Source: a bacterium (lineage in GTDB: Bacteria; Sysuimicrobiota; Sysuimicrobiia; Sysuimicrobiales; Humicultoraceae). From it: 59,460 nt of DNA. A program made the position numbers and the translations under genes. The notes under the pieces were generated by a model that was given only the letters and a program-made list of their open reading frames with translations, made no database searches and had not been told where the DNA came from. How positions within the stretch are numbered: position 1 is the stretch's first letter; the number at the start of each line of letters is the position of its first letter. The stretch covers positions 1 through 59,460 of the forward strand of contig JBOGSD010000013.1 in NCBI GenBank assembly GCA_050695215.1, read 5' to 3'. Shown here one piece after another: positions 2,871-46,626 of the stretch.

Positions 2871-3857
2871 ATGACCATCGCCCTCGCAGGAGCGGTGCTC
2901 ATCAGTCCGCCGCGTCTCGGGGCCGGGGAAATGATACGGGGCCGCGTCATCAATGGCACCCTCAACAACAGCCCGGTCGCCGGGCAGACGGTACAGCTCT
3001 TGCGGATGAGCGAGGACAGTGCAACCCCGCTCGCTTCAACGAAGACGGACCATCGCGGGAGATTCGTATTCAACGTTCCGGGCACGGAGAGCGTGTCCCT
3101 GGTGGTCGCCCGGTACCGCGGAATCCAGTACGCCAGCAAGACATTGCAACCGACGTCCAATACCGGAGCCTCCGAGGACATAAGCGTTTACGAGCCGACG
3201 ACCGACAGACCCGAGATCTCCTATAGCTATCGCATCGTTCTGATAGACCGGTTGGGCATCGGTGTCATTTCGGTGAGGGAGGTGGTGGGCGTCGTTAACC
3301 CTTCGTTACGCACATACATCGGACGCGAGGACGTTCCTGGCCGGAGAGTAGCATTGAGCGTCGATCTGCCGCGGGGAGCAGAGGGCGTGACCGTGCTCGC
3401 TGGCATCCCGGCGCCGATCGTCGAGCCGGGGCGTCTTTTGGATGCATCGCCGCTGGTGCCCGGCGTGCGCGACGTCGCATTCAAGTACCAGGTCCGGTAC
3501 TGGGGAAGCAAGGCTGCGCTTCGCTGGTCACTCGCCGAGAGCACAGGAAGTATGGATGTCTTCGCCCCCGATCTCGGAGAGCGGCTCCGCAGCGCGACCT
3601 TGGAAACGAAGCCGTCGGGCGCGGTGCGGGGGCAGCGGTTCCTGCGACTGGCTCAGGACAATCTTGCCGAGGGAGATGAGATTGAGGTCGAGTTGACGGG
3701 GCTGCCCGGGAATTATGCGCCTGTCGCCCGCTGGCTGGCCGGTCTGTTGGCCTTGATGCTGGCGGCGGTGCTGGTGGTGTCCGTGCGGGGATCGAAGGCG
3801 CGCGGCAATCAGCTCCCAGGCGATCGGCTGACGATCCGCACTATCTCCAAAATTTGA
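2871..3857 (+). CDS. Membrane-anchored exported protein with N-terminal carboxypeptidase-regulatory-like domain, paralog 1
   Basis: ORF 2769..3857. ATG 2871 follows AAGGAGG. IRGRVINGTL..GQTVQLL...TDHRGRFVF matches a CarboxypepD_reg-like fold. C-terminal TM helix. Clear paralog of 11143..12108. Confidence 0.6.
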   Translation: MTIALAGAVLISPPRLGAGEMIRGRVINGTLNNSPVAGQTVQLLRMSEDSATPLASTKTDHRGRFVFNVPGTESVSLVVARYRGIQYASKTLQPTSNTGASEDISVYEPTTDRPEISYSYRIVLIDRLGIGVISVREVVGVVNPSLRTYIGREDVPGRRVALSVDLPRGAEGVTVLAGIPAPIVEPGRLLDASPLVPGVRDVAFKYQVRYWGSKAALRWSLAESTGSMDVFAPDLGERLRSATLETKPSGAVRGQRFLRLAQDNLAEGDEIEVELTGLPGNYAPVARWLAGLLALMLAAVLVVSVRGSKARGNQLPGDRLTIRTISKI

Positions 3858-4505
3858 GAGGCATGGTCACCGAACAGGAGATCCACGCGCTGGACCCGGA
3901 TGACGTCCTGCGGATCGACCACGACGAAGCCCATCTGGGCGACACCCCGCATTCCGCCCATGGGTTGCCCCGCCTTTGGGAGCATGTCGTATTGTCTGGC
4001 CACGGACAGACCGCCATCGAGGAGCACCGGAAAGGTGACCCCTGTGATCTGCAGGAGCCTGCGTGACTCGTCGGGCGTGTCTTCTGTTGATCACGTAGAC
4101 GTCCGCGCTTTGCCTGAGGGATTCTGCCGACCGCTGCAGCTTCACGAGCTGCTCAAGGCAGAGCTGTCAGCCGACTCCCATATGGAAAATGAGAACCGTC
4201 GGCCTGCCCCGGCCGGGGGTGACCATATGCGACTGGCCATCGGCTGTGGAGAGGCTGAAAGAGGGCGCCCGCTGCCCCACCAGGGTTTTCACATCCTGGG
4301 AGACGTCGCGCCCCCCTACCGGGCCAGGCAAGCGCGATTCTGATCCTGGCGGTGACTGATCACGGGACAGCAGCCAGACGCCGGCCACAACAATGACCGC
4401 GATCCCGGCCGCGATCCACCACCGCCGCGCGCCGCTGAAGCCGCGCCGTGACCGTTGCTGCCTCTGCCGGAGGCGGGCTTCCGACCGTCGATTCTTCCGG
4501 CTCAT
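3809..4505 (-). pseudogene. Prx/redoxin-like selenoprotein paralog 1 (in-frame TGA 4167-4169; +1 frameshift near 4081-4085)
   Basis: ORFs 4167..4505, 3867..4145 and 3809..4027 join as ...TVLIFHMGVG-TGA-QLCLEQLVKLQRS...VINR(+1 nt)DTPDESRRLLQITGVTFPVLLDGG... by comparison with paralog 2. Confidence 0.6.
4136..4152 (-). promoter_or_regulatory. SECIS-like hairpin 14 nt downstream of TGA 4167-4169
   Basis: mRNA sense GCAGCU-CGUGA-AGCUGC: 6-bp stem with a GU-containing loop. Confidence 0.35.
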
Positions 4506-5047
4506 GGACTCCTCCGATCGGGCGAGGGCTCTGTCTCCCGCCGGGATTCCTCGTACTGCCAGCGCCGGTGCTCATCAGACCAGAGACTCTTGAAGTAGGT
4601 GATGAGGGCGCGGATGTCGGCCTCAGTCAGTTTGTCCTTGAACGGCGGCATCGTCAGATCCGGGGTCTTGTTGAACGGATCACGCCATCCGTTGCTGATG
4701 ATTGCAGCCAGCTCCCGATCGCTGTGCCGCCACGTGTGCCCTGCGTCATCGTGGGGCGGGGGTGGCAGGTTTCCCCGGGCGTCGGGCCGCGTCCAGTTCG
4801 GTGCCCCCTCGGCCCGCGGCCCGTGGCAGCTCGCGCAGTAGCGGACATACAACTCGCGGCCGCGTGCGACCTCGGGCGGTTCGAGAGGAGGCAGGCCGGG
4901 TCCTGCCGTGTCGGCTGCGGGGCGGGCGCAGCCGGCCAGGAAGAGCGCGCAGGCGGCTGCGAAAGCCAGACGCGGCCGCCAGGCTTGCGCGGCAATGCTC
5001 CCCCCGAAAGACGACCCGCGCACATGCGCTACCGCACAGGACGCCAT
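4502..5047 (-). CDS. Monoheme c-type cytochrome, probable lipoprotein, paralog 1
   Basis: CASCH heme motif. LFLAGC lipobox-like sequence. Its stop overlaps the next start (ATGA). Confidence 0.8.
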   Translation of the reverse strand: MASCAVAHVRGSSFGGSIAAQAWRPRLAFAAACALFLAGCARPAADTAGPGLPPLEPPEVARGRELYVRYCASCHGPRAEGAPNWTRPDARGNLPPPPHDDAGHTWRHSDRELAAIISNGWRDPFNKTPDLTMPPFKDKLTEADIRALITYFKSLWSDEHRRWQYEESRRETEPSPDRRSP

Positions 5048-11142: not shown

Positions 11143-12108
11143 GTGCTCAGGAAGCTGACGCTCATTGGGCTGTTAATCTTTCTGACCAGTCCGGCTCGGG
11201 CCGAGCCGATTGTGACGATCCGTGGCCATGTCCTCAACGGCACATTTGACCGGCGGCCGCTTCCCGGACGGTTCGTTCAAGTCGTCCGGATGAGCAGGGA
11301 AGGCGTCGTGATCGCGTCAGTCCGGACAAACGCCAACGGGGAATTCACCGCGAGGATACCCGAAAGCGACGGCACCTACGTCGTGGTCGCTCGCCATGGC
11401 GAGGTGGAGTACGCCAGTGAGCCGTTCCGGCTGAAACCCGGTCCCCCGGCGCGGATCAACGTCGTCGTGTACGAACCCACAACCCTCCGGCCGCCGCTCG
11501 TCTTTCCCTTTCGCATTGTCTTGATCGATCGTTTCGGGGCCGGCGTCATTTCCGTGCGAGAGGTCGTGGCCATTGCAAACCCATGGCCTCGCACATACAT
11601 CGGTCAACGTTCGCCGCAAGAGGGGTTCACGTTGACCCTGGCGTTGCCCCAAGGCGCCGAAGCGGTCGAAGTGCTGCGCGGTCTCGGGTCGGCGTCCCTC
11701 GAGAAAGGACGCCTCATCGACCGAGCCCCCTTGCAGCCCGGAGAGCACGAGATCGCGTATGCATACCAAGTCCGTTATTGGGGCACGAAAGCGCGGTTGA
11801 GGTGGGCGTTGGACGAGGACACCGGAAGCATGGATGTCTTCGCGCCCGACCAGGGTGAACGGCTCGCCAGCAATGTCCTAGAGGCCAAGCCTTCCGGCAT
11901 GGTCAAAGGGCAGCGATTCCTTCGCCTGGCCCGAGACGAGCTGCGCAGTGGTGAGGTCGTCGAAGTGATAGTGACGGGATTGCCGGGGAACTACTCGCCG
12001 GTCGTGCCCTTCCTGGCGATCGTGCTGGCGGTGGTCCTTTCAAGCAGCACGCTCATGGCGATCCGGAAGGCCAAGAAGGACCAGATCAGCTCGATGGCGT
12101 CCGACTGA
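11143..12108 (+). CDS. Membrane-anchored exported protein with carboxypeptidase-regulatory-like domain, paralog 2
   Basis: ORF 10966..12108. GTG 11143 gives signal peptide VLRKLTLIGLLIFLTSPARA. IRGHVLNGTF...NANGEFT. C-terminal TM helix. Confidence 0.6.
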   Translation: MLRKLTLIGLLIFLTSPARAEPIVTIRGHVLNGTFDRRPLPGRFVQVVRMSREGVVIASVRTNANGEFTARIPESDGTYVVVARHGEVEYASEPFRLKPGPPARINVVVYEPTTLRPPLVFPFRIVLIDRFGAGVISVREVVAIANPWPRTYIGQRSPQEGFTLTLALPQGAEAVEVLRGLGSASLEKGRLIDRAPLQPGEHEIAYAYQVRYWGTKARLRWALDEDTGSMDVFAPDQGERLASNVLEAKPSGMVKGQRFLRLARDELRSGEVVEVIVTGLPGNYSPVVPFLAIVLAVVLSSSTLMAIRKAKKDQISSMASD

Positions 12109-12784
12109 GCATCCTGACGATTTGCAAGAGCTGAGCGGCATGCTGGCCGAACAAGATATCGACCCGCTGGACACGGATCGCGCCCTGAGGGTCCACCACG
12201 ACAAAACCCATTTGGGCAACTCCCCTCATGCCCCCCATGGGTTGCCCCCGTTTCGGCAGCATATCGTAGCGCTCCGCCACCGCGAGATCACCGTCTAACA
12301 GTACCGGAAACGAGATCCCGGTGATCCGGAGGAGTCTGCGGGATTCCTCCGGCGTGTCCCTGTTCACCACATAAACGTCTGCGCGCTCACTGAGGACTTC
12401 CCTTTCCCTTGACCGCTGCAGCTCCACGAGCTGCTCGAGACAGAGCTGTCAGCCGACCCCCATGTGGAAAATGATCACGGTGGGGCGGCCCTTCCCCCGA
12501 GGGACGGTATGTTTCTCACCGTCGGCGGTGGAAAGTGCGAATGAGGGTGCCTGCCTCCCGACCAGGGTATTGACCTCCTGCGAGACCTCCCGTCCGCCGG
12601 CCGGACCCGGCAACCGTGTGTCCGTCGATTGCTGCTCGCCGCGCGATGCCAGCCAGATGCCTGCGACGAGGAGAGCGAGCACGATCGCCCCGCCCGCCCA
12701 CCAGGCGATCGAGGTCCTGGACCTGCGGCGTCCGCGCCGATGCTGCGGGGGCGAGCGCTTCACCCTGGCCTTTTGCGGGGTCAT
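12086..12784 (-). CDS. Membrane-anchored Prx/redoxin-like selenoprotein candidate (UxxC; Sec codon 12449-12451)
   Basis: ORFs 12449..12841 and 12086..12427 share one frame. Joined, they read VIIFHMGVG-U-QLCLEQLVELQRS...FPVLLDGDLAVAERYD. The TGA aligns to the first Cys of CQPC in paralog 26160..26780. ATG 12784 overlaps the cytochrome stop (ATGA). Confidence 0.7.
12418..12434 (-). promoter_or_regulatory. SECIS-like hairpin 14 nt downstream of TGA 12449-12451
   Basis: mRNA sense GCAGCUC-GUG-GAGCUGC: 7-bp stem with a GU-containing apical loop. Confidence 0.4.
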
Positions 12785-13284
12785 GGCTGTTTCTCCCCCG
12801 GGGAGCCGGTCTGCTCGCGCCTGCTCTCTCCCAGTTGCCATCGGCGGTGCTCTTGCGACCAGAGGCTCTTGAAGTAGGCGATCACGGCGCCGATCTCTTC
12901 ATCGCTAAGTTTGTCTTTGAAGGGCGGCATCGTAAGCTCCGGCGTCTTGTTGAACGGATCCCGCCAGCCATTCCGGATGATTTGGGACAACTCCTTGTCG
13001 CCGTGCCGCCACGTATGCCCGGTGTCATCGTGCGGCGGCGGCGGGAGATTGCCGCGAGCGTCCGGTTTGGTCCAGTCCGTGGCCCCTTCCGCGCGCGGTC
13101 CGTGACAGCTCGCGCAGGACTTCAGATATACCGCTCGCCCCTCAGCGACCTCCGCAGGATCGAGCGGAGGAAGTCTTCCCGATGTCGTCTCTGGACCGAG
13201 ACGCGTACAGGAGGTCAGGGCGAGGATCACCAGTATTAGCAAGAACAGCGAACCGAAGCCGAGCCCGTGTGGTCCGATTCTCAC
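12781..13284 (-). CDS. Monoheme c-type cytochrome lipoprotein, paralog 2
   Basis: LALTSC lipobox and CASCH heme motif. GTG start at 13284. Confidence 0.8.
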   Translation of the reverse strand: MRIGPHGLGFGSLFLLILVILALTSCTRLGPETTSGRLPPLDPAEVAEGRAVYLKSCASCHGPRAEGATDWTKPDARGNLPPPPHDDTGHTWRHGDKELSQIIRNGWRDPFNKTPELTMPPFKDKLSDEEIGAVIAYFKSLWSQEHRRWQLGESRREQTGSPGEKQP

Positions 13285-13307
13285 AGAACCCGCTGCGCCA
13301 AGGTTCT

Positions 13308-14216
13308 CTACTGCGTCACCTTCCGCCAGCTTATGCCGCCGCCCCGACTCGCCAGGAGCGTTCCGTCGGCGGCAATGGCGAAGAGGCGCTGCGGAAGGCG
13401 GGGGTGTTGTGCGAGCGCCGCCAGGCTTCCCGCCCCTGAGGGAAGAGTCACTGGGCGCCAGGTCCGTCCTGCGTCCGGGGAACGAAAGAGCCCGGCAGGG
13501 CCTGCGGCAAAGACCAGGCGCGGGTTGCGGAGATCGACAAGTACGGCGGCAGCCTCACTGGGGGTGGGCCACCGGCCCACCTGGCGCCACCCTCAGAAAC
13601 AATCCATGCTGATGTAGGGGCCCTCTTTGGTCCCGGCATAGAGCCAGCCGGTATTCATGCTGCCCTCGAGGGGCGAGTGCGCGAGCGCCAGGACCGGCTG
13701 TGCGGCGGGGCCGCCATCCATGCGCTGCCATCGCTGGCCGCTATCCTCCGTCCGGTACATCCCCTTTCCGCGCAGGGAGACAAAAAGGGTTGCGCGCCGG
13801 GAGGCGTGGATGGCCAAGGCCTCGACGTCCGTGGAGGAGAGCCCGGTGTTGATCTGCTGCCACGTGGCGCCGCTGTCCCGGCTCATGAGGACCCCTGCAC
13901 CGGGGCCGGCCGCGTATATTACGTCAGGCTTCTCTGGATTGACCACGACCTGGCTGACGCCGGTGGACGCAAAGCGGGCGGGAAGGGGAAGCGGCACCCA
14001 GCGACGCCCGCCGTCTTTACTGCGGAACAGCTGGGCCGAGGCGGCCTTGAGCAGATCGCCATTGCGCGGATCGACTGCAAGGCCGATTTGCGGGCGCCCC
14101 GGCGAAACAGACACGGGCGCCGCCACCCCGGAGGAACTCGATTCGCGCCTGTAGACGACGACAGCCCCCAGCAAGAGGAAGACCGCCAGGGACGCGATCA
14201 GGATGCGTGCCCTCAA
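13308..14216 (-). CDS. TM-anchored six-bladed BNR/Asp-box beta-propeller (Ycf48/sialidase-like) with in-frame TGA 13593-13595
   Basis: ORFs 13593..14369 and 13308..13580 share one frame. Asp-boxes: SKDGGRRW, SRDSGATW, TEDSGQRW, SMDCF-TGA-GW, SPDAGRTW, SRGGGISW. Start tentatively TTG 14216, overlapping the Rieske stop. Confidence 0.5.
13563..13581 (-). promoter_or_regulatory. SECIS-like hairpin 11 nt downstream of TGA 13593-13595
   Basis: mRNA sense GGUGGGCC-GGU-GGCCCACC: perfect 8-bp stem. Confidence 0.4.
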
Positions 14217-14884
14217 GCGATGCCCCCCGACTCGACGTCGGTGACCACGATCTGCTCGCCGCGGATCTCGTACAGGAACGTCCGCGGCGGGCGCGGCGCA
14301 GGGCCGGAAAGAACGCGGCCCGGCTGCTCGGGGTCTGCTGGATCGAAGATGGAGAGGTGGCAGGGGCACGCCATCAGGGCGTGCTGGCGCTCCTTGGGCG
14401 GCCTGTAGCCGCCATAGCCAGCCGTAACCTCTGCGTGGTTCGAGACATAGTTATAGATGCACCCCAAGTGGGGGCAGATGCGGGAGAAGACAATGAGATT
14501 GCTCTCTCGTCCAACAAACTCGGGTTTGTTAATGGCGCGGGCCCAGTCCCAAGGGAGCCTGACTTTCCCGGGCAGGCGGACCACCACTGCAGGCACGTTC
14601 GCCGAGCGCAGCCCTTCCGGCGTGTACTGCGGGTACTTCTGAGTGAATACGAAATACTTGAAGTCCCACGACCTCTGGACCTCGGACAGCGCCGCGGCGA
14701 CGGTCGTCTCCCCTCGAGGGATGTCGCGCACGGTAGGACGATACAGCACCTCAAATGGCTTCATGTTGGGTTTGAGCATCCTCAGGAGAGGCGATAAGAA
14801 GGCAGCGGCGGCGGCGACAAGCGGCAGGGACGTGACGAGTTTCAGGAAGCCGCGACGATCCAGGCCCTTTAGCTCCGTGGCCAT
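14213..14884 (-). CDS. Rieske [2Fe-2S] protein with Tat signal
   Basis: DRRGFLK twin-arginine signal. CPHLGC ... CPCH cluster motifs. Confidence 0.85.
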   Translation of the reverse strand: MATELKGLDRRGFLKLVTSLPLVAAAAAFLSPLLRMLKPNMKPFEVLYRPTVRDIPRGETTVAAALSEVQRSWDFKYFVFTQKYPQYTPEGLRSANVPAVVVRLPGKVRLPWDWARAINKPEFVGRESNLIVFSRICPHLGCIYNYVSNHAEVTAGYGGYRPPKERQHALMACPCHLSIFDPADPEQPGRVLSGPAPRPPRTFLYEIRGEQIVVTDVESGGIA

Positions 14885-14967: not shown

Positions 14968-15873
14968 CTAAACCGGACAAACCGTCAAAATGGGGAAGAC
15001 ATTCAACGCCCAGACGAGCCCGTAGAGCCCGGCCGCCGGTCCCAGGACAACCGCCACTGCCACCCAGCTCTCGAGGAGCGCCCGAGGGGACGCTCCGGGC
15101 AGGTCCACGCCTCGCCCCAGCAGCAGTGAGAGCCGGACATCTGTCACGCTCGTGAAAGCGCTGGCCGGCGTGACAGCGGGCGCCGGGTTGAGGAGCTTGA
15201 GCATGGCAGAGGAGAGGCTGACCGAATCGCCAAGTCGCGCCAGGGCGTACTGGTCGGCGGCAAGCTCCAGGGCGGCCTGCTGTCGCACGGCCAGAGCCTT
15301 CGCAACGGGAAGATAGAAGAACCCGGCGGCCAGCGCCCTGGACACAAGCAGAGCCAGGGGGTCCCTGTGCACAGCATGGCTCGCCTCATGGAGGAGGACG
15401 GCTTCGAGCTCGCCTTCATCGAGGCGCTCGATCAGCCCGGTGGAAATGATGATCTTTGGCGCAAAGAGGCCCGCGGTGAGCGCGTATGGCCGGACGTCGC
15501 CGACGGCGACGACGTGATCCATCAACCCCAGCGTGTGGAGGACAGGGAGGAGCTCTAAGGGCAAGCCCACAGCGTGACGCCTGAGGGACCGGACATACCG
15601 CCACGTCTCCCACCATTTGCTCAGCGCGGCGGCGAGCCAGAAGACGGCGGCGGCCAGACCCGCCAGCATTACAACGACCGCCAAGCCCTGAACCACATCC
15701 GGCAGGACGCGCCACACACGGAGGCACATGTGGCCCAGCGCCGTCAAGGCTCCCCGGAAGGCCTTTGCGCCAAGCACGGCGGCCACGCCAAGGGCAAGAG
15801 AGGCCACGACGGACACGACCACGACGCCCCACAGCGCACGGACTGCCTCTTTACGGTAATCGGCTTGGTCCAC
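14968..15873 (-). CDS. M56-family (BlaR1-like) membrane metalloprotease without extracellular sensor domain
   Basis: 301 aa, multiple TM helices, LLHEASHAVHRDPLALL (HEXXH). Confidence 0.8.
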   Translation of the reverse strand: MDQADYRKEAVRALWGVVVVSVVASLALGVAAVLGAKAFRGALTALGHMCLRVWRVLPDVVQGLAVVVMLAGLAAAVFWLAAALSKWWETWRYVRSLRRHAVGLPLELLPVLHTLGLMDHVVAVGDVRPYALTAGLFAPKIIISTGLIERLDEGELEAVLLHEASHAVHRDPLALLVSRALAAGFFYLPVAKALAVRQQAALELAADQYALARLGDSVSLSSAMLKLLNPAPAVTPASAFTSVTDVRLSLLLGRGVDLPGASPRALLESWVAVAVVLGPAAGLYGLVWALNVFPILTVCPV

Positions 15874-21813: not shown

Positions 21814-21883
21814 TTATAGGGAGAAATGTGTCAATGGCAATGGACAGGAATTGCCGCGTTTGACCCGTCCGAAAGGAGACATC

Positions 21884-24160
21884 GTGTCCCTAACCTCTCG
21901 CCGGCCGCTGCTTCTCCTGCTGGTCACAACCCTGTTCATCGCCGGCGGCGCCGGCGGCGCCCAAGGTCACGCGCTCCTGGAGAGCTCTGACCCGCCTGCG
22001 AACCGCCTTCTCCTCAAGTCACCGAAGGAGATCGTGCTGCGGTTCTCCGAGCCCGTCGACCCTACGCGGACGCAGATCCGCATCCTTGATCAGGAGGGCC
22101 GGCGGATCGACCGCCAGGCATTCCGGTTCACTCCGGACCGCCGTCAGGCGCGCCAGCCCCTGCGCCTACCGGGCCCAGGGATCTACACCGTTACCTGGCG
22201 CACAGTCTCAACCGTCGACCAGCACACGTACGAGGGCTTCTTCACTTTCACCCTGGGACCGCTGCGGGTCGGGGGATTCACCCTGAAGGGGGGTGTGCCG
22301 ACACTCCCCTCCCCCTGGGAGATCGCCGCGCGCTGGGGCATGTTCCTCGGCGCCGCCGTGCTCGTTGGCGGCCTGATGGTCCACCGGGTCCTCCTCCCTC
22401 ACGCCCTCGGCGTGTCGGGGATCGTTGAGCCACCCCTGGCGGGACTGCACCATCGCTGGAGGGTGGTCTCAGCGCTGGGGGTGGCCCTCTTCATTCTCGG
22501 TGCGTCAGGTGAGCTTGCGGCCCTGGCGACCCGCACCGCCCAGGCCGCAGGCGAGAACGTCATTCCGGCATTATCTCAACTCGCCGCGGGAGAGCCGACC
22601 CGCACTGCGCTCGCGATCAAGATCGCAGCTCCTCTGGCCCTGCTCGCGCTACTCCGACGCCGGCTGCCCCCCGCGCCCCCAACGTCGCGGCTGGGAGTGG
22701 TTGCTCCCGGTGCAGCCCTTCGCTTCACTGAACTGACGCTCGCGGCGGTGCTGCTGCTGGGTATCACCATCACCAGCCATGCCGCCGCCACGGGACGCCT
22801 CCTCCCCCTCCTCGCCGACTGGCTGCACCTGATCAGTGCCGCCGTCTGGGTGGGAGGCCTGATCCACCTGGCACTCGTGCTGCCTCCCAGCCTTCGGGAT
22901 CTGGGCGCCGGAGCAGGGCATCGTCTCCTCGGTCCCCTTGTCGAGCGATTCTCAAACGTCGCCCTGGTCAGCGTCTCCGTGCTCGTGGCGACCGGCGTCT
23001 ACGCCTCTCTGACGAACATCCCCACTCTGGAAGGTGTCACCGATACGACCTACGGCAGGACGCTGGCGGTTAAGATCGCCCTCGTTCTGCCCCTTCTGGT
23101 CATCGCGACGGTGAACCTCCTGTCCTTCCGCCCCGCCCTTGTGGACGCGGCAGGACGCGCCGCAGAGGTTAGGATCCACGCTCTCCACCGTCTCTTCTTC
23201 CGGCTGGTCCGCGCCGAGGTCGTCCTGGCCTCGGCCGCCTTGCTGGCGGCGGCGCTTCTGGCGCTGCTTCCGACCGCTCGCCAGGCCCTCGCTCTGGCGC
23301 CCGAACGTGCGGTGGCCCTCACCCGGCGGGCGGAGGGACTCGAGGGCACCCTCAGGATCGCGCCCTATCAGGTGGGCGAAAATACCTTCGAGCTGCGGGT
23401 CCGCAACGTGGAGTCCGGGATCTTGCTGCCGGACGCCCGCGTCCGCTTCACCTTCCAACCCCTCATGGCTGACATCGGGACCTCCTCGGTCGACGCTCAA
23501 TCCCTGGGCGACGGCCGCTTTGTCCTCGAGGGAGCATACATCGGCACGGCTGGGGCATGGCTTATCAGCGTGACCGTGAGGCTGCGGGGACGGGAGGACG
23601 TCCACCTGCTGTACCCCGTGGAGCCGGACTGGCAGAGGAAGGACGCTCTCATGCCCCGCTCCGACCCACGGGCGGAGGGCCTCCTCGCCGCGACCGATGA
23701 GGCCATGAACCGGCTCAGGGCGCTCCGCCAGCGCCAGGAGATCGCCGACGGCTCCGGCAACGACGTGGTGACGTTCTACGCGTTCACGGCGCCCGACGCG
23801 ATGCACTACAAAGTGGTCGGAGGAAGCGAGGCAATCTTCGTCGGCGAGAAGCGGTTCGACACCGACGGGAGCGGTTGGCAAGAGTCGCGGGCGCCCGACC
23901 GCTTCCGTTTTCCCAACTTCACCTATGCGGAAAACGCGACCAACGTGGTGCTGGGCCCGCGCCAGGTCGTGAATGGAGCCAGGACCCAGGCGGTCGTCTT
24001 TGTCCTCAACCTCGGCTCAGCGAGGGCGCGCTATGCCGTCTGGGTCGACGAGCGCACCCGCCGCATCATCCGCGAGGCCATGGTCGCGCGATCGCACTAC
24101 ATGACGAACGACTACTTCGACTTCAACGCGCCAATCCGGATCAGGGCTCCCGTGCCATGA
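21884..24160 (+). CDS. Copper resistance CopC-CopD fusion (YcnJ-like) with C-terminal FixH/YtkA-like and additional domains
   Basis: ORF 21851..24160. GTG 21884 follows AAAGGAGA. HALLESSDPPANRLL...LRFSEPVDP is the CopC part, followed by a polytopic CopD part. Confidence 0.8.
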   Translation: MSLTSRRPLLLLLVTTLFIAGGAGGAQGHALLESSDPPANRLLLKSPKEIVLRFSEPVDPTRTQIRILDQEGRRIDRQAFRFTPDRRQARQPLRLPGPGIYTVTWRTVSTVDQHTYEGFFTFTLGPLRVGGFTLKGGVPTLPSPWEIAARWGMFLGAAVLVGGLMVHRVLLPHALGVSGIVEPPLAGLHHRWRVVSALGVALFILGASGELAALATRTAQAAGENVIPALSQLAAGEPTRTALAIKIAAPLALLALLRRRLPPAPPTSRLGVVAPGAALRFTELTLAAVLLLGITITSHAAATGRLLPLLADWLHLISAAVWVGGLIHLALVLPPSLRDLGAGAGHRLLGPLVERFSNVALVSVSVLVATGVYASLTNIPTLEGVTDTTYGRTLAVKIALVLPLLVIATVNLLSFRPALVDAAGRAAEVRIHALHRLFFRLVRAEVVLASAALLAAALLALLPTARQALALAPERAVALTRRAEGLEGTLRIAPYQVGENTFELRVRNVESGILLPDARVRFTFQPLMADIGTSSVDAQSLGDGRFVLEGAYIGTAGAWLISVTVRLRGREDVHLLYPVEPDWQRKDALMPRSDPRAEGLLAATDEAMNRLRALRQRQEIADGSGNDVVTFYAFTAPDAMHYKVVGGSEAIFVGEKRFDTDGSGWQESRAPDRFRFPNFTYAENATNVVLGPRQVVNGARTQAVVFVLNLGSARARYAVWVDERTRRIIREAMVARSHYMTNDYFDFNAPIRIRAPVP

Positions 24161-27540: not shown

Positions 27541-27576
27541 TCGGTGTCTGCTGCCAGAAACACGGAGGAGCGACCC

Positions 27577-30168
27577 ATGGACACCGCCACGGCCGGAGCG
27601 CCAAAAAGTGCGACCCTGCCGGTGGAGGGGATGTCGTGCGCGTCGTGCGTGCACACGATCGAGACGGCGCTCTCGAACCTTCCGGGCGTGGCGAAGGCCA
27701 CCGCGAGCCTCGGCGCGGAGAAGGCCTTCGTCGAATACCTTCCCGGCGTTACCAGCCTCCGCCAGATGGAAGAGGCGATCACGGCGGTCGGGTACCGGGT
27801 GGCCAGAGAGACCGTCACGTTCACGCTCCGGAGGATCTCGTGGCCTGGTGACGTGAGCAAGATCGAAAGCCGGATCGGCGCCCTTGGGGGAGTCGCGCAG
27901 GTGGCCGTCGACCACGGCACCGGCGCCGTCAAGGTCGAGTACTACCCGGGGGCGATTACCCCCGCCGAGGTCGGGCGGGCACTCCGGGACCTCGGCTACG
28001 AGCCCGAGGAGCGGCGGGAGGGCATCGCGGCAGCAGACCGCGAGCGCGAGGCGCGCCAGCGTGAGATCCGGCGCCAGGCCCGGAACATGCTCGTCGCCTG
28101 GCCGCTCAGTCTGCTGGTGATGTTCGGCACCTTCCGCGACTACTTTCCCTGGGGCCTCGGTGCTCTGCTGCCCGAGGGCCTCGGCAACCGCTTCCTCCTG
28201 TGGGCCCTGACGACGCCGGTCGTGTTCGGGCCGGGCTGGCAGTTTTTCGTACGCAGTTACCGTGGCCTCCGCCACGGCGTCACGGACATGAACCTCCTCT
28301 ACGCAGTCGGGATCGGCACCGCGTACCTCATCGCCGTCCTGAACACGGTCTTCCCTCGCGCCGGCTTCGGCGGCCCGCAGGCCACGTTCTTCGAGGCCGC
28401 CGCGTTGCTCACCGCGTTTATCGTCCTGGGCCGCTACCTGGAGGCCCTGACGCGGGGGCGGACCTCCGAGGCCATCCGCAGGCTGATGGGCCTCCAGCCC
28501 AAGATGGCGCGCGTCCTCCGCGAGGGCGGGGAGGTTGAGATCTCGGCAGATGAGGTCGAGGTCGGCGACACCGTGGTCGTCCGCCCCGGGGAGCGCATTC
28601 CGGTGGACGGCATCGTGCTCGAGGGTTACTCCGCCGTCGACCAATCCATGCTCACCGGCGAATCCCTGCCCGTAGAGAAACAGGCAGGTGACGAAGTCAT
28701 CGGCGGCACCATCAACAAGACCGGGGCATTCAAGTTCCGGGCCACAAAGGTGGGGAGGGATACGGCCCTCGCCCAGATCATCAGGCTCGTCGAGGACGCG
28801 CAGGCCAGCAAGGCGCCGCTGCAGCAGATGGCCGACACGGTGGCAGGCTACTTCATCCAGGGGGTCCTGGTCCTGGCGCTGGCCGCCTTCCTCTTCTGGT
28901 TCTTCGTCGGCTACCAGGCCTACTTCGACCCGGCGACGCGTTTCGTCCTGACGCCGTACACCCTGGGCCAGGTGGGGGTCTTCGGGTTCGCCCTCCTGCT
29001 CAGCGCGACCGTCCTGATCATCTCCTGCCCTTGCGCCGTGGGGATCGCGACCCCCAGCGCCATGATGGCCGGGATCGGCAAGGGCGCGGAGCACGGCATC
29101 CTGTTCAAGGGCGCCCGCGCGATCGAGGCGACAAGCCGGCTGCAGATGGTGGTTTTCGACAAGACGGGGACGCTGACCCGGGGGGAACCGTCCGTGACGG
29201 ACGTGCTGCCGGCCGAGGGCATCCGCGAGGCGGAACTGCTGGGCTTCGCGGCGGCCGTCGAGGTGAACTCGGAACACCCGCTGGGTGAGGCCATCGTCCG
29301 CGGCGTCCGGCAGCGCGGGCTGCCGGTCGAGGAGGCCGAACGGTTCAACGCCATCCCCGGGCACGGTGTGGAGGGCCGGCACGGCGGCCGGGAAGTCCTG
29401 CTGGGCAACCGGAAGTTGATGACGACCCGCGGGGTACAGATCGGCCATCTCGAAGCCCACGCCGTCCGGCTGGAGGAGGAGGGCAAGACGGTCATGTTCG
29501 TGGCGGTCGATGGCCGCGCGGCCGGGCTCGTCGCCGTGGCGGACACGCTAAAGGAGTATTCGGTGGACGCCGTCCGCCGGCTGCAGCGGCTTGGACTCAA
29601 GGTGGCCATGATCACCGGGGACAACCAGCGCACGGCGGCGGCGATCGCCCGGCAGGTCGAGATCGACCGGGTGCTGGCCGAGGTGCTGCCGCAGGACAAG
29701 GCGGAGGAGGTCAAGAGGCTGCAGGCGCAGGGCCTCCGCGTTGCCATGGTCGGCGACGGCGTGAACGACGCCCCGGCACTGGCCCAGGCGGACGCGGGCA
29801 TCGCCATCGGCAGCGGTACGGACGTCGCCAAGGAGACGGGCGAGGTGATCCTGATCAAGGACGACCTGCGCGACGTCGTCGTGGCCATCGAGATCGCCCG
29901 CCGCACGATGGGCAAGGTGAAGCAGAACCTCTTCTGGGCGTTCATCTACAACCTGACGGGCATCCCCATCGCCGCCGGCGTGCTCTACCCCGCGCTCAAG
30001 CTCATCGTCAGCCCCGAACTGGCAGCCTTCTTCATGGCCACGAGCTCCGTCTCCGTGACCCTGAACACGCTGCTGCTGAAACGGTACGTCCCCTCAATCA
30101 AGCGGGTTGGACCGACGCCCAGGCGGGGGCAGCCGGCGCCCGTGCCCGCCACGGCAGGGAGCGAGTAG
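27577..30168 (+). CDS. copA: Cu(I)-translocating P1B-type ATPase CopA
   Basis: ORF 27544..30168. ATG 27577 follows GGAGGA. HMA domain GMSCASC, plus a second HMA-like domain without CxxC. SCPCAVG, DKTGTLT and GDGVNDAP motifs. Confidence 0.9.
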
Positions 30169-30417
30169 ATGGCTCCGGCGGCGGCGCGCGATCCGGTGCG
30201 GTTCGGCATCCGGCTGGGGACGCTCATTTCGCTGGCGCTCGCGGTGGTATTCTTCGTGACTGCCCGGGTTTCCGGAGCGCCGGGCGCGGCACAGTACGGC
30301 GGTGCGGTCTGGGTCTTCATCCTATCGCTCCTCGTCTCGCTTCCGCTCCTCACCCCCCTAATGCGGAAGAAGTCCGGACAGAGGCGAGTGCCGGAGACTC
30401 CGGAGGATGTGCGGTGA
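30169..30417 (+). CDS. Small two-TM membrane protein
   Basis: 82-aa ORF immediately after copA, overlapping the next gene. Confidence 0.35.
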   Translation: MAPAAARDPVRFGIRLGTLISLALAVVFFVTARVSGAPGAAQYGGAVWVFILSLLVSLPLLTPLMRKKSGQRRVPETPEDVR

Positions 30418-31085
30418 CCTTCGCCGAGTGGTACGGCAACTGGAAGGTCGTCCTGGTCTACGTCCTCCTGTTCGGCGGGTTCACGCTGGGTCTCGCCCGC
30501 CCGCGCCGCCCCCGCGAGTGGCGCGGGATGGGCGTCTTCCAGGCGTTCCTGGTCGCGCTCTTCACCGAGATGTTCGGGGTCCCGCTGACCATCTATCTGC
30601 TCGCCCCGGCGCTGGGACTGCCCCCCGCGGCGTTCGGATTCTACGAGAGCCACCTGTGGGGGTACTTGCTCGCCCGAGCAGGCCTGATGCCCGTGGGCGC
30701 GGCGGCTCACCTGATGATGTTCCTCAGCACCCTCATCATCCTGCCCGGCATCCTCTTGACCATCGCCGGATGGCGGCGGATCTACCGGGCGGGCGAGGGG
30801 CTGGTCACCACAGGCGTCTATGCGTTGATGCGCCACCCTCAGTACCTGGGAATCGTCCTGGTGGCCACCGGATTCCTGGTGATGTGGCCCACCCTGCCGA
30901 CGCTCGTCATGTACCCCATCCTGCTCGTGATGTATGGGCGCCTCGCGGGCGAGGAGGAGTTCCGTCTGGCGCAGGAGTACGGCGAGGCGTACGAAGACTA
31001 CCGGCAGCGTGTCCCGGCCGTCTTCCCCGTCTTCCACCCCAGTTCCGGCTTCCGGGAACGCAGGAGACAGGAGAAGACAGCTTGA
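30414..31085 (+). CDS. Isoprenylcysteine carboxyl methyltransferase / PEMT-family membrane methyltransferase
   Basis: TTGVYALMRHPQYLG ... EEEFRLAQEYGEAYEDYRQRV. Confidence 0.65.
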   Translation: MTFAEWYGNWKVVLVYVLLFGGFTLGLARPRRPREWRGMGVFQAFLVALFTEMFGVPLTIYLLAPALGLPPAAFGFYESHLWGYLLARAGLMPVGAAAHLMMFLSTLIILPGILLTIAGWRRIYRAGEGLVTTGVYALMRHPQYLGIVLVATGFLVMWPTLPTLVMYPILLVMYGRLAGEEEFRLAQEYGEAYEDYRQRVPAVFPVFHPSSGFRERRRQEKTA

Positions 31086-31492
31086 GCCATCGCGGGCGCG
31101 CGAGACACGTCAGTCTGGTGATTCTTCAAGGGGTCCTCTTCCTGATGGCAGGGTGTGCGCGAAAGCCGGCCGGACAGGCTCCCGGCCAGCCCGCTGCGGG
31201 CCCGGGCAGGGTGGTCGAGGTCAGGCTTGTAGGCACTGAGTTCAAGTGGAACCCGCGCACCGTGACCGTCACGCAGGGACAGCGGGTCCGGTTCAGGGTC
31301 GTGAACGCCGGCGCGATCGAGCACACATTTGTTAGCGACCAGGCGAAGATTCCAGAGACGAAGTCGATCGCGCCCGGCGAGGAATTCGTCGTCGAGTGGA
31401 CGGCCCCGCAGAAGCCGGGGTCCCTGCCATTCTGGTGCGGAGTTCCGGGGCACCGTGAGGCCGGGATGGAAGGGACCATCATCGTGAAGTGA
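31082..31492 (+). CDS. Cupredoxin (plastocyanin/amicyanin-like) lipoprotein
   Basis: TTG 31082 overlaps the upstream stop (TTGA). LFLMAGC lipobox. Type-1 Cu ligands: IEHTF...FWCGVPGHREAGM. Confidence 0.7.
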   Translation: MSHRGRARHVSLVILQGVLFLMAGCARKPAGQAPGQPAAGPGRVVEVRLVGTEFKWNPRTVTVTQGQRVRFRVVNAGAIEHTFVSDQAKIPETKSIAPGEEFVVEWTAPQKPGSLPFWCGVPGHREAGMEGTIIVK

Positions 31493-36668: not shown

Positions 36669-37313
36669 CTAGCGGGCTGCTGAACCGCCCGGAGGGACAA
36701 CCAACGAAAGTCGTGCAGGGCCGGAGACAGCATTCGCCTGCCCGGCGCGCCACGCTCCCCAGACGGCCCCGCCGGCCAGCAGCGCGATGCTGACCGGGAT
36801 GAGGTAGACGCGGAGCGCGATCAGCGCCAGGACCGAGTTGGCGCCCAGGACGATCGCCACCGTGGGGACGCAGCAGGTGAATCCCGTCAAGAGGCTGGGG
36901 AGGGATCCAAGGAACCCCGAGACCGTACTCCGCCGGCAGGCGTACTGCGCTCTGAACTGATGAACCGCCAGCGAAAGGTTGACGCCAACGAGGATGGCGA
37001 GCAGGAGCCCCAACAGCAGGTTTGGCACAGCCAGCAGGATCACAAGCCGCGGTGTCAGGTACAGCGCGGCGACGGGTTCGTACGCATAAGGCGCGATCGC
37101 CCGCCAGAGCTTGAGCGGCCAGTCCGGCGCCACCTGGAACGCGGGAAAGCCCGGTAGAGGGACGGTAGCCGCGCGCAAATACACAATGTGTTGGATGCTG
37201 TACAGGTACATCAGCAGGTAGAGGAGCGCGGTAATCAGGACGATCCGGCGGTACGTCGGGAGCCTGAAGACGTGCGCGAACTGGCGACCGGCGATCGAGA
37301 GCACGCCGGTCAT
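36669..37313 (-). CDS. Polytopic membrane protein with an intramembrane vicinal Cys pair (TCCVP)
   Basis: 214 aa. LPSLLTGFTCCVPTVAIVLG. Its start overlaps the DUF3179 stop. Confidence 0.45.
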   Translation of the reverse strand: MTGVLSIAGRQFAHVFRLPTYRRIVLITALLYLLMYLYSIQHIVYLRAATVPLPGFPAFQVAPDWPLKLWRAIAPYAYEPVAALYLTPRLVILLAVPNLLLGLLLAILVGVNLSLAVHQFRAQYACRRSTVSGFLGSLPSLLTGFTCCVPTVAIVLGANSVLALIALRVYLIPVSIALLAGGAVWGAWRAGQANAVSGPARLSLVVPPGGSAAR

Positions 37314-38476
37314 CGCCCCTCCACCTGAGGGACGAAGAGCCTAGTCGCCGGGAAGAAAGCGTACCAGGCGAACCACATCACGTCGAACGTGTTGATCCCC
37401 ATCAATTGAGCCCCCCGGAGCTTCCCTTTGAGAGCTTGCCCGCGAGGCGACCAAGTGGTGCCCGTCTGGCGATCAGCGACGACGTCACCGCGGCGCTCGA
37501 ACTGCAAGACCTTCCCCTCAAGCCGGCGCGAGTAGACTCGCACCGTGTCGAGGGCGCTGTCGTACAGCACCACGATGGGCTCTTCCCCTATGTCTGTGTT
37601 GGACACCTCGACCTTTCGCATGGCGTCCTTCGGGATGGCCAGTTGCTCCCCGTTGTGCTTGATCCCCATGACGACGTGCTTCATCGGCAGGCGGTCGCTG
37701 CGGTGCATGATCGGGAAGAACGGCCCGCCCGTGAAGTAGTAGTTATTCCCGGGCCGACGGTACGAGCCGTACGGATCCTGCCCGTACGCCCGGATATGGC
37801 CGGTCTCCCTAGAGAGAACCAGCGTGTTCGGATAGAGGCGCTTCCACCGTTCCCACGTCGTCCACACGACCGGAAACTCCTCCAGCGTGGCACCTTTGAG
37901 ACGGCCCTGAATAGCGACCCCGAGGACCTGCGGCCAGTTGCTGTCCGTCGGCCGATCATACATGAGCAGGTTGCTGTTGACCAACATGCCGGAGGTGCCC
38001 AAGGTCAGGGGCTTGCCGTCGACGATCGGCGACCGGCCCCGGAAGCCGACAGCGGATCCTGTCAGCGGGCAGTAGGTGAGGGACGCCTGCTCGCCGCCGA
38101 AGGTATCGTTGACGATCTCGTGCCAGACCAGGATGATCTGCGGGAAGGCTTTGACCTCGCCCTTGTAGTCCACCCCGAAGACCACGTCCTCCGGGACGAG
38201 GAACTTATCCGCCTCGGCCGCGGAGGTATACTTGGGTCGGTCGATCGGAGGAATCCCGTCCTTCGGCGGGCCGCCCCGGATGACGTTGCTGGCGAAATCG
38301 TCAAGCGTCGGCAGCTTGCCGGCCGCAAGCGCCTGGGCTCGACGCCAGCGGTCGGGGCCGAGGATCGAGAAGAACGTCCCTCTGGTGAGCGCAAGAGCGA
38401 CCAGACCGGCAGCGCTGAGCCCGCCAAGGAGAAAGGCCCTGCGGGTGATTTCGGCGCCGTCCTTCACCGGCATCAC
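37310..38476 (-). CDS. DUF3179-domain protein with Tat-like signal
   Basis: RRAFLLGGLSAAG signal. GGPPKDGIPPIDRPKY...AFPQIILVWHEIVND...TYCPLTGS. Confidence 0.75.
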   Translation of the reverse strand: MMPVKDGAEITRRAFLLGGLSAAGLVALALTRGTFFSILGPDRWRRAQALAAGKLPTLDDFASNVIRGGPPKDGIPPIDRPKYTSAAEADKFLVPEDVVFGVDYKGEVKAFPQIILVWHEIVNDTFGGEQASLTYCPLTGSAVGFRGRSPIVDGKPLTLGTSGMLVNSNLLMYDRPTDSNWPQVLGVAIQGRLKGATLEEFPVVWTTWERWKRLYPNTLVLSRETGHIRAYGQDPYGSYRRPGNNYYFTGGPFFPIMHRSDRLPMKHVVMGIKHNGEQLAIPKDAMRKVEVSNTDIGEEPIVVLYDSALDTVRVYSRRLEGKVLQFERRGDVVADRQTGTTWSPRGQALKGKLRGAQLMGINTFDVMWFAWYAFFPATRLFVPQVEGR

Positions 38477-39746: not shown

Positions 39747-39821
39747 TGGTGGGCCCGCCTGGGTTCGAACCAGGAACCGGCGCCTTATGAGGGCGCTGCT
39801 CTGCCCTTGAGCTACGGGCCC
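39747..39821 (-). tRNA. tRNA-Met (anticodon CAU; elongator Met or Ile2-type), CCA encoded
   Basis: GGGCCCGTAGCTCAAGGGCAGAGCAGCGCCCTCATAAGGCGCCGGTTCCTGGTTCGAACCCAGGCGGGCCCACCA folds as a cloverleaf: 7-bp acceptor stem, CTCATAA anticodon loop, GTTCGAA T-loop. The paired 1:72 position argues against an initiator. Confidence 0.9.
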
Positions 39822-39965: not shown

Positions 39966-40226
39966 ATGGCCGTCAATCCCATTGAAGTCAGGCTGGCGCA
40001 TCTCGAAGGCGCCTTCGAGCAGATCAATCATCGCCTCGGAGCGATCGAGGGGCGTCTCGATTCAATTGACTCTCGGATGGAGTCGCGATTTGCAGCGGTC
40101 GACGCCCGGTTAGAACGGTTGGAAGACAGACTGGTCTCTCGAATGGATCGTCAGTTCTACTGGATACTCACGCTCGTGGTTCTGTCGATCCTTGTCCCGA
40201 TCTCGCTCCGCGTCTTGAATCTCTGA
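39966..40226 (+). CDS. Small coiled-coil protein with C-terminal TM helix
   Basis: RLAHLEGAFEQINHRLGAIEGRLDSIDSRMESRFAAVDARLERLEDRL, then a TM helix. The architecture is XhlA-like, which is an inference only. Confidence 0.35.
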   Translation: MAVNPIEVRLAHLEGAFEQINHRLGAIEGRLDSIDSRMESRFAAVDARLERLEDRLVSRMDRQFYWILTLVVLSILVPISLRVLNL

Positions 40227-40260
40227 GCCTACACTCCCTAAGGACATCCGCCGCCGCGGC

Positions 40261-40998
40261 TCAATAGGCGACATGGAGCAGATATAGCCCGTGGGCGGGG
40301 GCGCTGGGACCTGCGGCGCCATCCGATCCAGAGGTCAGGAATGCCTCGATCGCTCCGGCATCGAGCGTGCCTCTTCCGACCCGGAGGACCGTTCCCACCA
40401 TCATCCGTACCATGTGGCGCAGGAAGCGGTCGGCGCCGAAGGTCAGCACCAACAGGTCGTCCCGCGCCTCGTCTAGCCCGGCGTGGGCCAACGTGCACCG
40501 CGTCGTCCGCGTGGGTGTCCCCAGGGCCCGGAACGCCCGGAAGTCATGTTCGCCTTCCAGCCGTCCCAGGGCCGTTCGCATCCCGTCAAGATCGAGCGCA
40601 TCACGAACGTGAAGGGCATTGGGCCGGAGCAACGCGGAGGGTTCGGGCCGCCGGAGGATGAGATAGCGATAGACGCGGAAGCGCGCGTCGCGGCGAGCGT
40701 GGAAATCGCGTGGAGCGTCGGCCGCCTCGCGGATGGAGACGTCGCGGGGCAGGAGGGCGTTCAGCCCACCGGCGATCCGTTCCGGCGGCAGGCGGCTCTC
40801 CGTGTGGAAGTGGGCCACCTGTCCCAGGGCGTGCACGCCGGCGTCAGTGCGGCCGGCCCCCACCACGCGGGCGGGGGTCTGCGTCAGCGCCTCGATGGCG
40901 CGTTCGAGTTCTCTCTGCACCGACCGATCGTTCCTCTGGCGCTGCCAGCCGGCGAAGTGCGTCCCATCGTACTCCACGGTCAGACGGATGGTGCGCAT
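40261..40998 (-). CDS. truA: tRNA pseudouridine(38-40) synthase
   Basis: MRTIRLTVEYDGTHFAGWQRQ...GRTDAGVHA. Confidence 0.9.
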   Translation of the reverse strand: MRTIRLTVEYDGTHFAGWQRQRNDRSVQRELERAIEALTQTPARVVGAGRTDAGVHALGQVAHFHTESRLPPERIAGGLNALLPRDVSIREAADAPRDFHARRDARFRVYRYLILRRPEPSALLRPNALHVRDALDLDGMRTALGRLEGEHDFRAFRALGTPTRTTRCTLAHAGLDEARDDLLVLTFGADRFLRHMVRMMVGTVLRVGRGTLDAGAIEAFLTSGSDGAAGPSAPAHGLYLLHVAY

Positions 40999-41008
40999 GC
41001 CGCCCGCG

Positions 41009-42681: not shown

Positions 42682-42685
42682 CCGT

Positions 42686-43549: not shown

Positions 43550-43557
43550 GCGGAAGT

Positions 43558-43917
43558 CTACGAGGAGGAGACCAGTTCGACCAGCGCCATCGGCGCACTG
43601 TCGCCGCGGCGGCGCCTCGTCTTGATCACCCGAGTGTATCCGCCCTGCCCCACCTTGTACCGCGGCGCGATTTCAGCAAACAGACGCTTGCGCGCGGCGC
43701 GGTCCAGGACCAGGCGGCCCACCTGGCGCCGCGCGTGCAGGTCACCCCGCAGGGCGAGGGAGATGAGGCCGTCGGCGATCTTCTTGGTCTCTTTGGCCTT
43801 GGCCTCGGTGGTTTCGATCCGCTCGTGTAAGATCAGCGCGCTGAGCAATTGCCGGAACAGGGCGGTCCGCGCGCCCGTGTCCCGTCCCAGTTTGCGCCCC
43901 TTCGCTCCCAGTCCCAT
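43558..43917 (-). CDS. rplQ: 50S ribosomal protein L17
   Basis: ORF sequence and position after rpoA. Confidence 0.9.
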
Positions 43918-44888: not shown

Positions 44889-44905
44889 GCGTCTCCTCCT
44901 TCTAC

Positions 44906-45623: not shown

Positions 45624-45659
45624 GACGCCTCCTCTAGCCCTGCTGACGACTGGCCGTCA

Positions 45660-46046: not shown

Positions 46047-46049
46047 AGC

Positions 46050-46481: not shown

Positions 46482-46492
46482 CGCTCCGCCTC

Positions 46493-46606: not shown

Positions 46607-46626
46607 CGTGTGCTCCTACGCTCCCG

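Follow-up and report, generated by a model that had tools for sequence, protein, structure and literature searches.

An in-frame TGA codon in the gene of an exported six-bladed beta-propeller very probably encodes selenocysteine (Sec), as judged from the comparison of homologous sequences. The gene lies on the minus strand of a 59,460-nucleotide stretch of contig JBOGSD010000013.1 (hereafter the window, meaning the whole stretch of DNA analysed). Its predicted coding sequence (13308..14216), supported by the translation and by Pfam profiles, runs from a TTG start to a TAG stop and gives a BNR/Asp-box propeller selenoprotein of 302 residues. The UGA (13593..13595, minus strand) is predicted to be read as Sec at residue 208, within a C-F-U motif, and this residue aligned with an invariant Cys of the homologues. 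Its partner in the C-x-U pair would be Cys206 (codon TGT, 13599..13601, minus strand), a position that is itself TGA in two related loci (L017 and L018). Eleven nucleotides after the UGA stands a hairpin of the selenocysteine insertion sequence (SECIS) type (13563..13581, minus strand), with an 8-bp stem, a GGU loop and a UGA-to-loop distance of 19 nt. This hairpin would act as SECIS and recruit SelB with Sec-tRNA(Sec), upon which the ribosome would insert Sec instead of terminating. The product would be one continuous exported protein of 302 residues, with Cys206-Phe-Sec208 located in a modified Asp-box turn of blade 4. Going by the codons found at these positions, the family is made of C-x-C forms (Proteobacteria, Gemmatimonadota and some Chloroflexota), predicted C-x-U forms (Armatimonadota and Chloroflexota) and a few predicted U-x-U forms.

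The joined propeller protein and its homologues

The initial annotation had placed two open reading frames (13593..14369 and 13308..13580) in one frame, and joining them gave the 302-residue translation with a single internal TGA (13595..13593), after which the frame was open up to the TAG at 13310..13308. The six Asp-box-like motifs it had quoted were all recovered in this translation (SKDGGRRW, SRDSGATW, TEDSGQRW, SMDCF*GW, SPDAGRTW and SRGGGISW), the TGA being position six of the fourth one (S-M-D-C-F-*-G-W), and so was the Cys located two residues N-terminal of the TGA codon (TGT at 13601..13599). The BNR, Sortilin-Vps10 and PSII_BNR profiles of Pfam scored above their curated cut-offs on the joined protein (PF15902, 60.1 bits for a cut-off of 33; PF02012, 31.5 bits for 27; PF14870, 30.0 bits for 27), which places it among the BNR/Asp-box propellers. 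At the equivalog level the protein fell outside Ycf48 (NCBIfam NF010237, 32.1 bits for a cut-off of 326), and no photosynthesis genes were found around the propeller gene in the window. The F510_1955 glycosylhydrolase family (NF045728) was the best NCBIfam match, yet it reached only 113.7 bits for a cut-off of 175. The window propeller displayed an N-terminal hydrophobic anchor or signal, while many Cys forms carried lipoprotein signals instead (e.g., LAAC, VACG). Beyond the repeat residues, His137, His180, Met187, Met204, Asp205, Cys206 and position 208 were nearly invariant. The public annotation of the window propeller (P0001) ends at residue 207.

P0007, a homologue with Cys at the Sec position whose identity to the window protein was 46-50% according to how the two were aligned, served for structure modelling, with an alignment of 120 sequences. 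The AlphaFold model (pLDDT 89.1, pTM 0.84) was a closed propeller of six four-stranded blades, the fold that had been supposed from the motifs, with the C-x-C pair in the turn of blade 4: the D-C-F-C-G segment formed the turn between strands 206-211 and 217-219, which is the Asp-box turn of that blade. Such a turn is reportedly a solvent-exposed hairpin on the propeller rim. Foldseek searches with the model retrieved GH74 and Ycf48 structures (probability 1.0, E = 1e-13 to 1e-9). The nearest solved folds were GH74 xyloglucanases, a Ralstonia BNR protein and Ycf48 (TM 0.5-0.6, 15-22% identity), whose relationship is limited to the fold.

The joined protein had 328 relatives in the homology search, and the following counts come from the best 120 clusters. 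Eighty-three clusters stopped at the TGA column (82 ending in ..MDCF and one in ..MDCY), although they were only 43-72% identical to the window protein, and four stopped at ..MD, i.e., at the first Cys codon. All full-length homologues (32 of 32) displayed MDCF-C-GW at this place, and never Arg. Two entries, P0013 (265 aa) and P0005 (247 aa), had the upstream Rieske-like part or other upstream sequence fused to a truncated propeller; these fusions are annotation artefacts.

At the DNA level, 80 loci were compared, these being the closest matches to the query among species-representative genomes; together with the window, the 21 TGA loci made 22 TGA genes. The codon at the Sec column was TGA in 21 loci and TGC or TGT in 48. 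TGA loci belonged to Armatimonadota, Thermomicrobiales, Anaerolineae, other Chloroflexota and one genome labelled Proteobacteria, while TGC/TGT loci were found in Proteobacteria (Halomonas, Vreelandella, Burkholderiales, Rhodocyclaceae), Gemmatimonadota, Longimicrobiaceae and one Chloroflexota genome. In two divergent Chloroflexota (L017:4922-4972 and L018:10625-10675), both Cys positions were TGA (D-U-F-U-G-W, if so decoded) and a single hairpin followed downstream. Decoding of both would mean that one SECIS serves a pair of Sec codons 6 nt apart. The clusters P0095, P0098, P0099 and P0100 end in ..MD, also stopping at the first Cys codon.

The frame beyond the TGA was preserved in the 13 TGA genes examined: 12 of them had 92-101 open codons after it and the remaining one, L017, which carries an insertion, had 149, and this part held the two remaining Asp-boxes, conserved in frame. 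Pairwise dN/dS values were 0.05-0.32 for this tail and 0.09-0.26 for the 150 codons before the TGA; they are rough values, with dS near saturation, and their direction is clear. The Gly codon right after the TGA used all four third bases, the next codon, TGG (Trp), was invariant, and the third base of the following Arg codon varied. These patterns point to equal purifying selection on tail and head, and to translation of the tail. They agree with the initial view that reading continued through the TGA, and no relaxed constraint was seen downstream of it.

The downstream hairpin and the decoding of the TGA

The hairpin announced by the initial annotation was found at 13581..13563 (GGUGGGCC-GGU-GGCCCACC), separated from the TGA by a spacer of 11 nt (GGGTGGCGCCA); folded alone, it had a free energy of -15.5 kcal/mol. 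A hairpin stood at the same position in all 22 TGA genes. When the eight pairs of the window were imposed on the alignment, 89% of the cells were paired, against 36-52% when the 3' partner was slid by 1-3 columns. Compensatory pairs were observed, namely 25-41 changing from GC to AU in five sequences and 31-35 from AU to CG in three. All 22 genes had C as the third base of the Gly codon located within the stem, whereas the Gly codon outside the stem varied freely at this base. Two genes (L013 and L016) encoded another peptide in this region (G-T/A-R-D-V/A-P), yet formed a hairpin at the same place with a CGUGA loop (GGCACG-CGUGA-CGUGCC and GGGCGCG-CGUGA-CGCGCCC, respectively).

The bacterial SECIS consensus comprises a loop of 3-9 nt, a stem of 4-16 bp, a G in the first two loop positions, a UGA-to-loop distance of 16-37 nt and a free energy no higher than -7.5 kcal/mol (PMC13188914). 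These constraints were all passed by 20 of the 22 TGA genes, the window gene among them, compared with six of the 35 distinct Cys genes. The Cys form P0007 was 76% identical to a Sec form and only 44% to any other Cys form, and its hairpin was degraded, with ATGGGCAAGCTACCGGGC where the Sec forms related to it have ATGGGCAGTTTGCCCGTC, which shows that the hairpin tracks the TGA rather than the clade. As far as these alignments tell, Sec-to-Cys switches occur and the hairpin then decays. Among orthologues, the hairpin was conserved and covarying in TGA forms and lost in Cys forms, an outcome that bears out the role first proposed for it. At gathering thresholds, Rfam returned the tRNA-Met only over the whole window, and a permissive search of 12000-14400 gave no matching model, with two chance hits (mir-1976 and flavi_FSE, E > 3).

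TGA was the stop codon of 14 of the 18 Pfam-supported genes of the window, and the terminal stop of the propeller gene itself in seven of the 13 TGA genes examined; on this codon usage, TGA is not reassigned in the window organism. A second predicted selenoprotein gene lies in the same operon. The initial annotation had noted a UxxC candidate as the next gene but one, and it was found as described: a TlpA/AhpC-like redoxin with a membrane anchor (12086..12841, minus strand), whose TGA (12449..12451) stands in the active site GVG-U-QL-C. It is followed by its own SECIS-type hairpin (12418..12434, minus strand; GCAGCUC-GUG-GAGCUGC), with 7 bp, a 3-nt loop starting with G and 21 nt from UGA to loop. 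The redoxin TGA was kept in all 18 loci with the gene, including L015, whose propeller has Cys, and the stems covaried (GCAGCUC/GAGCUGC, GCAACUC/GAGUUGC and CCAACUC/GAGUUGG). Two unrelated genes of one operon, each with a TGA at a redox Cys position and a hairpin of the same architecture, are what is expected of a working SelB system.

Two observations concern the redoxin gene itself. Public annotation splits it into a 111-aa and a 113-aa gene. Elsewhere in the window (3800-4960, minus strand), near a transposase fragment, a second cytochrome c (69% identical) and a second redoxin were found, without a second propeller. This duplicate redoxin kept GVG-TGA-QLC and is divided between two frames by a frameshift that follows ..VYVIN; the copy is either a decaying duplicate or an assembly error.

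Several points weigh against Sec decoding of the propeller TGA. Every TGA-form sequence came from metagenome-assembled genomes or metagenomes. ARAGORN detected no tRNA-Sec in the 59-kb window nor in the 21 Sec loci, and tblastn with Escherichia coli SelA, SelB and SelD (queries checked against a published table) gave no match in the window and roughly 85 loci. The local fold of the 61-nt stretch had a z-score of only -1.4 in DNA of 70%+ G+C, and whole-segment folding energy did not separate TGA from Cys genes (p = 0.08). The hairpins of L008 and L021 fell just short of the -7.5 kcal/mol criterion. A possible restart site, discussed below, follows the TGA in nearly all loci. The Pfam scan of 28 large open reading frames of the window (about ten of them spurious opposite-strand frames) did not display Sec machinery either. 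Its absence here says little, because the window is a copper and cytochrome-maturation cluster beside an rpoA/secY ribosomal region. A tRNA-Sec is known from Chloroflexi, with an unusual 8/4 fold (PMC5389517).

Among the other explanations, reading of the UGA as a residue other than Sec (Cys by way of a tRNA-Sec-like tRNA(Cys) or a mischarged tRNA(Sec), or a near-cognate residue) has a small probability. The homologous residue is Cys, so that Cys insertion would yield a functional protein, and selC* tRNA(Cys) with UCA anticodons, together with SelB paralogues, are described for some bacteria in sections of PMC5389517. However, the lineages that these sections name for selC* tRNAs are other ones, Deltaproteobacteria and Nitrospirae. 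The signal also has the position, the loop size and the G-first loop of an ordinary bacterial SECIS. Furthermore, a costly signal would have been maintained in at least 87 lineages for a Cys obtainable by one TGA-to-TGY change, while switches from Sec to Cys do happen, as in P0007, and are followed by decay of the hairpin.

A stop at the TGA with restart at a GTG, ATG or TTG codon 12 nt further on (13580 in the window), the two polypeptides forming one propeller, is very unlikely. The GAGG and GTG that the initial annotation had pointed to are a real feature, as GAGG (the TGA plus GG), 10 nt and a possible start codon were found in 21 of 22 loci, and Cys forms carry Thr, Ala or Ser codons at the restart position. 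As a mechanism, restart fares poorly: L013 has GTC there, which is no start codon, and the conserved hairpin encloses the putative start in its 5' arm. Nor does a split account for stops that coincide exactly with a conserved Cys, or with both Cys codons as in L017 and L018. The intervening G-W-R stretch, which would be untranslated in a split gene, is conserved with a codon-like pattern and forms the last strand of blade 4 in the P0007 model. Finally, the export signal or anchor is N-terminal only, and a restarted C-terminal piece would remain cytoplasmic.

It is hardly more credible that the hairpin has nothing to do with decoding and either results from the peptide encoded there (V/M-G-R/S-L/W-P) or marks a generic translational pause. 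Many hairpins form at high G+C, the local z-score is modest as given above, and the six Cys-form genes of 35 that pass the SECIS constraints fit this idea. Against it, L013 and L016 form the hairpin at the same place with a different peptide, synonymous sites are frozen in the stem while the Gly codon outside is free, and compensatory pairs are present. The hairpin also follows the TGA even between proteins that are 76% identical, and the unrelated redoxin gene has one of the same architecture after its own TGA.

A pseudogene, in which a nonsense mutation (e.g., CGA to TGA) truncated the propeller past blade 4 and left a decaying remnant downstream, was the alternative retained by the initial annotation on account of the Arg at the equivalent Asp-box position of two other blades, and the public annotation does stop at residue 207; its probability is nonetheless close to nil, as the residue homologous to the TGA is an invariant Cys and never Arg in full-length relatives, the same TGA recurs in 21 species genomes and in 83 clusters as divergent as stated above, and the tail is open with dN/dS values like those of the head.

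Gene neighbourhood and a possible role in copper handling

The propeller gene is co-transcribed with a gene for a membrane-anchored c-type cytochrome (12781..13284, minus strand; lipobox LTSC, haem motif CASCH, Pfam Cytochrome_CBB3 and Cytochrom_C). All 21 Sec loci and 56 of the 59 Cys loci held a homologue of this cytochrome, whose gene mostly began a few hundred bases or less past the propeller. On the other side, a Rieske-like protein with a twin-arginine signal is encoded at 14213..14884 (minus strand), and its TGA stop overlaps the TTG start of the propeller at 14216. Among the fetched species genomes this gene stood next to the propeller only in L001, so it is considered an accessory part. 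The whole module is extracytoplasmic, as indicated by the anchor of the propeller, the lipobox of the cytochrome, the membrane anchor of the redoxin and the twin-arginine motif of the Rieske-like protein.

Of the 21 Sec loci, 14 had a TlpA-like redoxin within 10 kb of the propeller, nine had CcdA and four a copper-type P-type ATPase; the corresponding numbers for the 59 Cys loci were 48, 40 and 33. A BlaI-like repressor and an M56 (BlaR1-like) membrane peptidase (14968-15873, minus strand, with L081:2455-2883) were present at 12 of the Sec loci and at no Cys locus; this pair may be the copper sensor of this lineage. Genes of a copper and cytochrome c maturation island occupy 21851-24160, 27544-30168 and 30407-31492 on the plus strand of the window, and the surrounding 25 kb encoded a CopC-CopD fusion, a P1B ATPase with two HMA domains, a cupredoxin, CcdA, CcmH, CcmF, VKOR and several redoxins. 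In Proteobacteria, the Cys-form gene was found on plasmids of Halomonas, Rhodopseudomonas, Burkholderia and Sinorhizobium, under the names 'YCF48-related protein' or 'hypothetical protein', and its plasmid neighbours were DUF411/CopG, SCO, PCu(A)C, multicopper oxidase, DsbE, DsbD, MerR and P-type ATPase.

The far part of the window (40000-59460) harbored an ECF/ABC transporter (CbiQ, ABC ATPase), rpoA, secY and ribosomal-protein genes, and a tRNA-Met lies at 39747-39821. The rest of the window being ordinary core chromosome, the copper island is chromosomal here, while it is plasmid-borne in Proteobacteria. The RpoA of the window was closest to those of Armatimonadota-type genomes (75-76% identity to HRbin32 and CR_Sed_300A_bin.49).

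From this neighbourhood and from residue chemistry only, a tentative function as an extracytoplasmic copper-binding or copper-redox protein can be sketched. The C-x-U pair, together with H137, H180, M187 and M204, would make up a site outside the cytoplasm for the binding of Cu(I) or for redox chemistry, the nearly invariant His/Met/Cys set being of a composition that we infer to be typical of Cu(I) ligands. This site would exchange electrons with the co-transcribed cytochrome c, and the C-x-U pair would be kept reduced by the adjoining pathway from CcdA to the TlpA-like redoxin, in parallel to the action of TlpA on ScoI/CoxB before metallation. It is possible, if rather unlikely, that the propeller is in this way a new copper-handling component, with Cu(I) at a C-x-U or U-x-U turn, its own cytochrome c and a Sec-containing TlpA-like reductase. 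If true, copper tolerance or cuproenzyme maturation in Armatimonadota and Chloroflexota would depend on selenium, and the U-x-U variants would hold two adjacent Sec codons under a single SECIS.

In Bradyrhizobium, TlpA reportedly reduces ScoI/CoxB for copper-site maturation. The window module resembles this system in having a membrane-anchored, CcdA-fed TlpA-like redoxin beside an extracytoplasmic protein with a Cys pair, and SCO and PCu(A)C occur in the same islands. It differs in that the redoxin is itself UxxC (in the window and 18 related loci, as predicted) and in that the client would be a propeller and not a thioredoxin-fold Sco, the interaction being deduced from gene context.

Public gene calls were irregular in this stretch: the 167-residue cytochrome c (L081:10933-11436) was called as a 49-residue gene and no call covered the C-terminal 95 codons of the propeller. 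Failure to recognise the Sec codon seems to have upset gene prediction throughout the stretch.

Comparison with known selenoproteins and propellers

The arrangement found here is that of fdhF and other bacterial SECIS elements, with an in-frame UGA immediately followed by a stem-loop (GGU loop, 8 bp, 19 nt in the window). The spacing of 11 nt between UGA and hairpin is reportedly that of the minimal fdhF element. By contrast, the window stem, a short and perfectly paired G+C helix, has no counterpart to the bulged U of fdhF, the propeller stands outside any catalogued oxidoreductase selenoprotein family, and in two genomes one hairpin would serve two UGAs 6 nt apart. Most bacterial selenoproteins are thioredoxin-fold or molybdopterin enzymes, whereas the predicted Sec of this family is located in a surface turn of an exported beta-propeller, in soil and subsurface Armatimonadota and Chloroflexota that have been little studied for selenium use.

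Terms for BNR, Asp-box, propeller, Ycf48 and sortilin had no entry in the 2022 table of 87 families (PMC9312934), nor in the 2026 table of 119 families and subfamilies (PMC13188914). Propeller terms were likewise absent from the main texts of BSepDB and deep-Sep and from the deep-Sep supplements, the 111-family list of BSepDB lying outside the comparison. The deep-Sep sequence table contained none of DCFUGW, MDCFU, NTGWLY, DCFCGW and GSMNTGW. The propeller selenoprotein family is new to the selenoprotein catalogues checked, and its recoding mechanism is ordinary. Its unusual traits are an exported non-thioredoxin propeller with Sec in an Asp-box turn, the C-x-U and U-x-U motifs, and the link with copper islands and a Sec redoxin. 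At least 87 clusters (NCBI, JGI, ENA, Logan) are deposited as truncated proteins of ~200 residues that should be selenoproteins of ~300 residues; these truncated entries are named 'YCF48-related' or 'photosystem II stability/assembly factor-like'.

Ycf48/HCF136, GH74 proteins and sialidases share BNR/Asp-box repeats and a beta-propeller fold with the window family. Compared with Ycf48/HCF136 and other BNR propellers, however, the family has six blades and not seven, and TM values reached only 0.5-0.6. We know of no C-x-C or C-x-U pair inside an Asp-box of Ycf48, GH74 proteins or sialidases.

Sec lying one or two residues from a Cys, as in the predicted CxU pair, is catalogued for rhodanese form 3, UshA-like proteins, ferredoxin-thioredoxin reductase and Trx-like Sec.1. 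Among metal-related selenoproteins, the SO_0444 Cu/Zn efflux transporter (UxC), the E1-E2 cation ATPase (UxxC), MerT-like proteins and MbdU offer likenesses, and by analogy with these predicted metal-binding or transport families, Sec as a soft-metal ligand would have a precedent. The catalogued CxU and metal selenoproteins differ in having unrelated folds, with no beta-propeller among them and no dedicated cytochrome c partner reported.

The Cys forms, named 'sialidase family protein' and the like, belong to the same family (e.g., WP_008958473.1 of the Halomonas sp. HAL1 plasmid pHAL1). The best plasmid Cys forms were 36-40% identical to the window propeller over >80% of the length, had cytochrome c directly downstream in three of four plasmid contexts and were likewise accompanied by TlpA, CcdA, DsbE and copper genes. 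The Cys-form homologues compared at sequence level displayed MDCF-C-GW at the Sec position. Cys forms differed by Cys in place of Sec and by the lack of a conserved hairpin, and those retrieved in the protein search were lipoproteins, not signal-anchored proteins. No paper was found on the Cys-form family in the copper literature or on 'F510_1955', and no study was found of the propeller and cytochrome c pair, which is widespread on proteobacterial metal-resistance plasmids. Cys forms are present in cultured Halomonas, Burkholderia, Bradyrhizobium and Nitrobacter, which makes their function directly testable.

On plasmid pSinB of Sinorhizobium sp. M14 (L089, 6881-10859), two propeller paralogues were found. 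In place of cytochrome c, the first is followed by a DUF1573 protein, a family with Sec forms in other cases. The plasmid also has a petA-like Rieske gene close by, which recalls the Rieske-like gene upstream of the window propeller. The window also encoded a full-length DUF3179 protein (37310-38476, minus strand; Pfam E = 3e-102) in an uninterrupted open reading frame, presumably a non-Sec form of a family that is catalogued elsewhere in bacteria as a selenoprotein family (UxxC/T).

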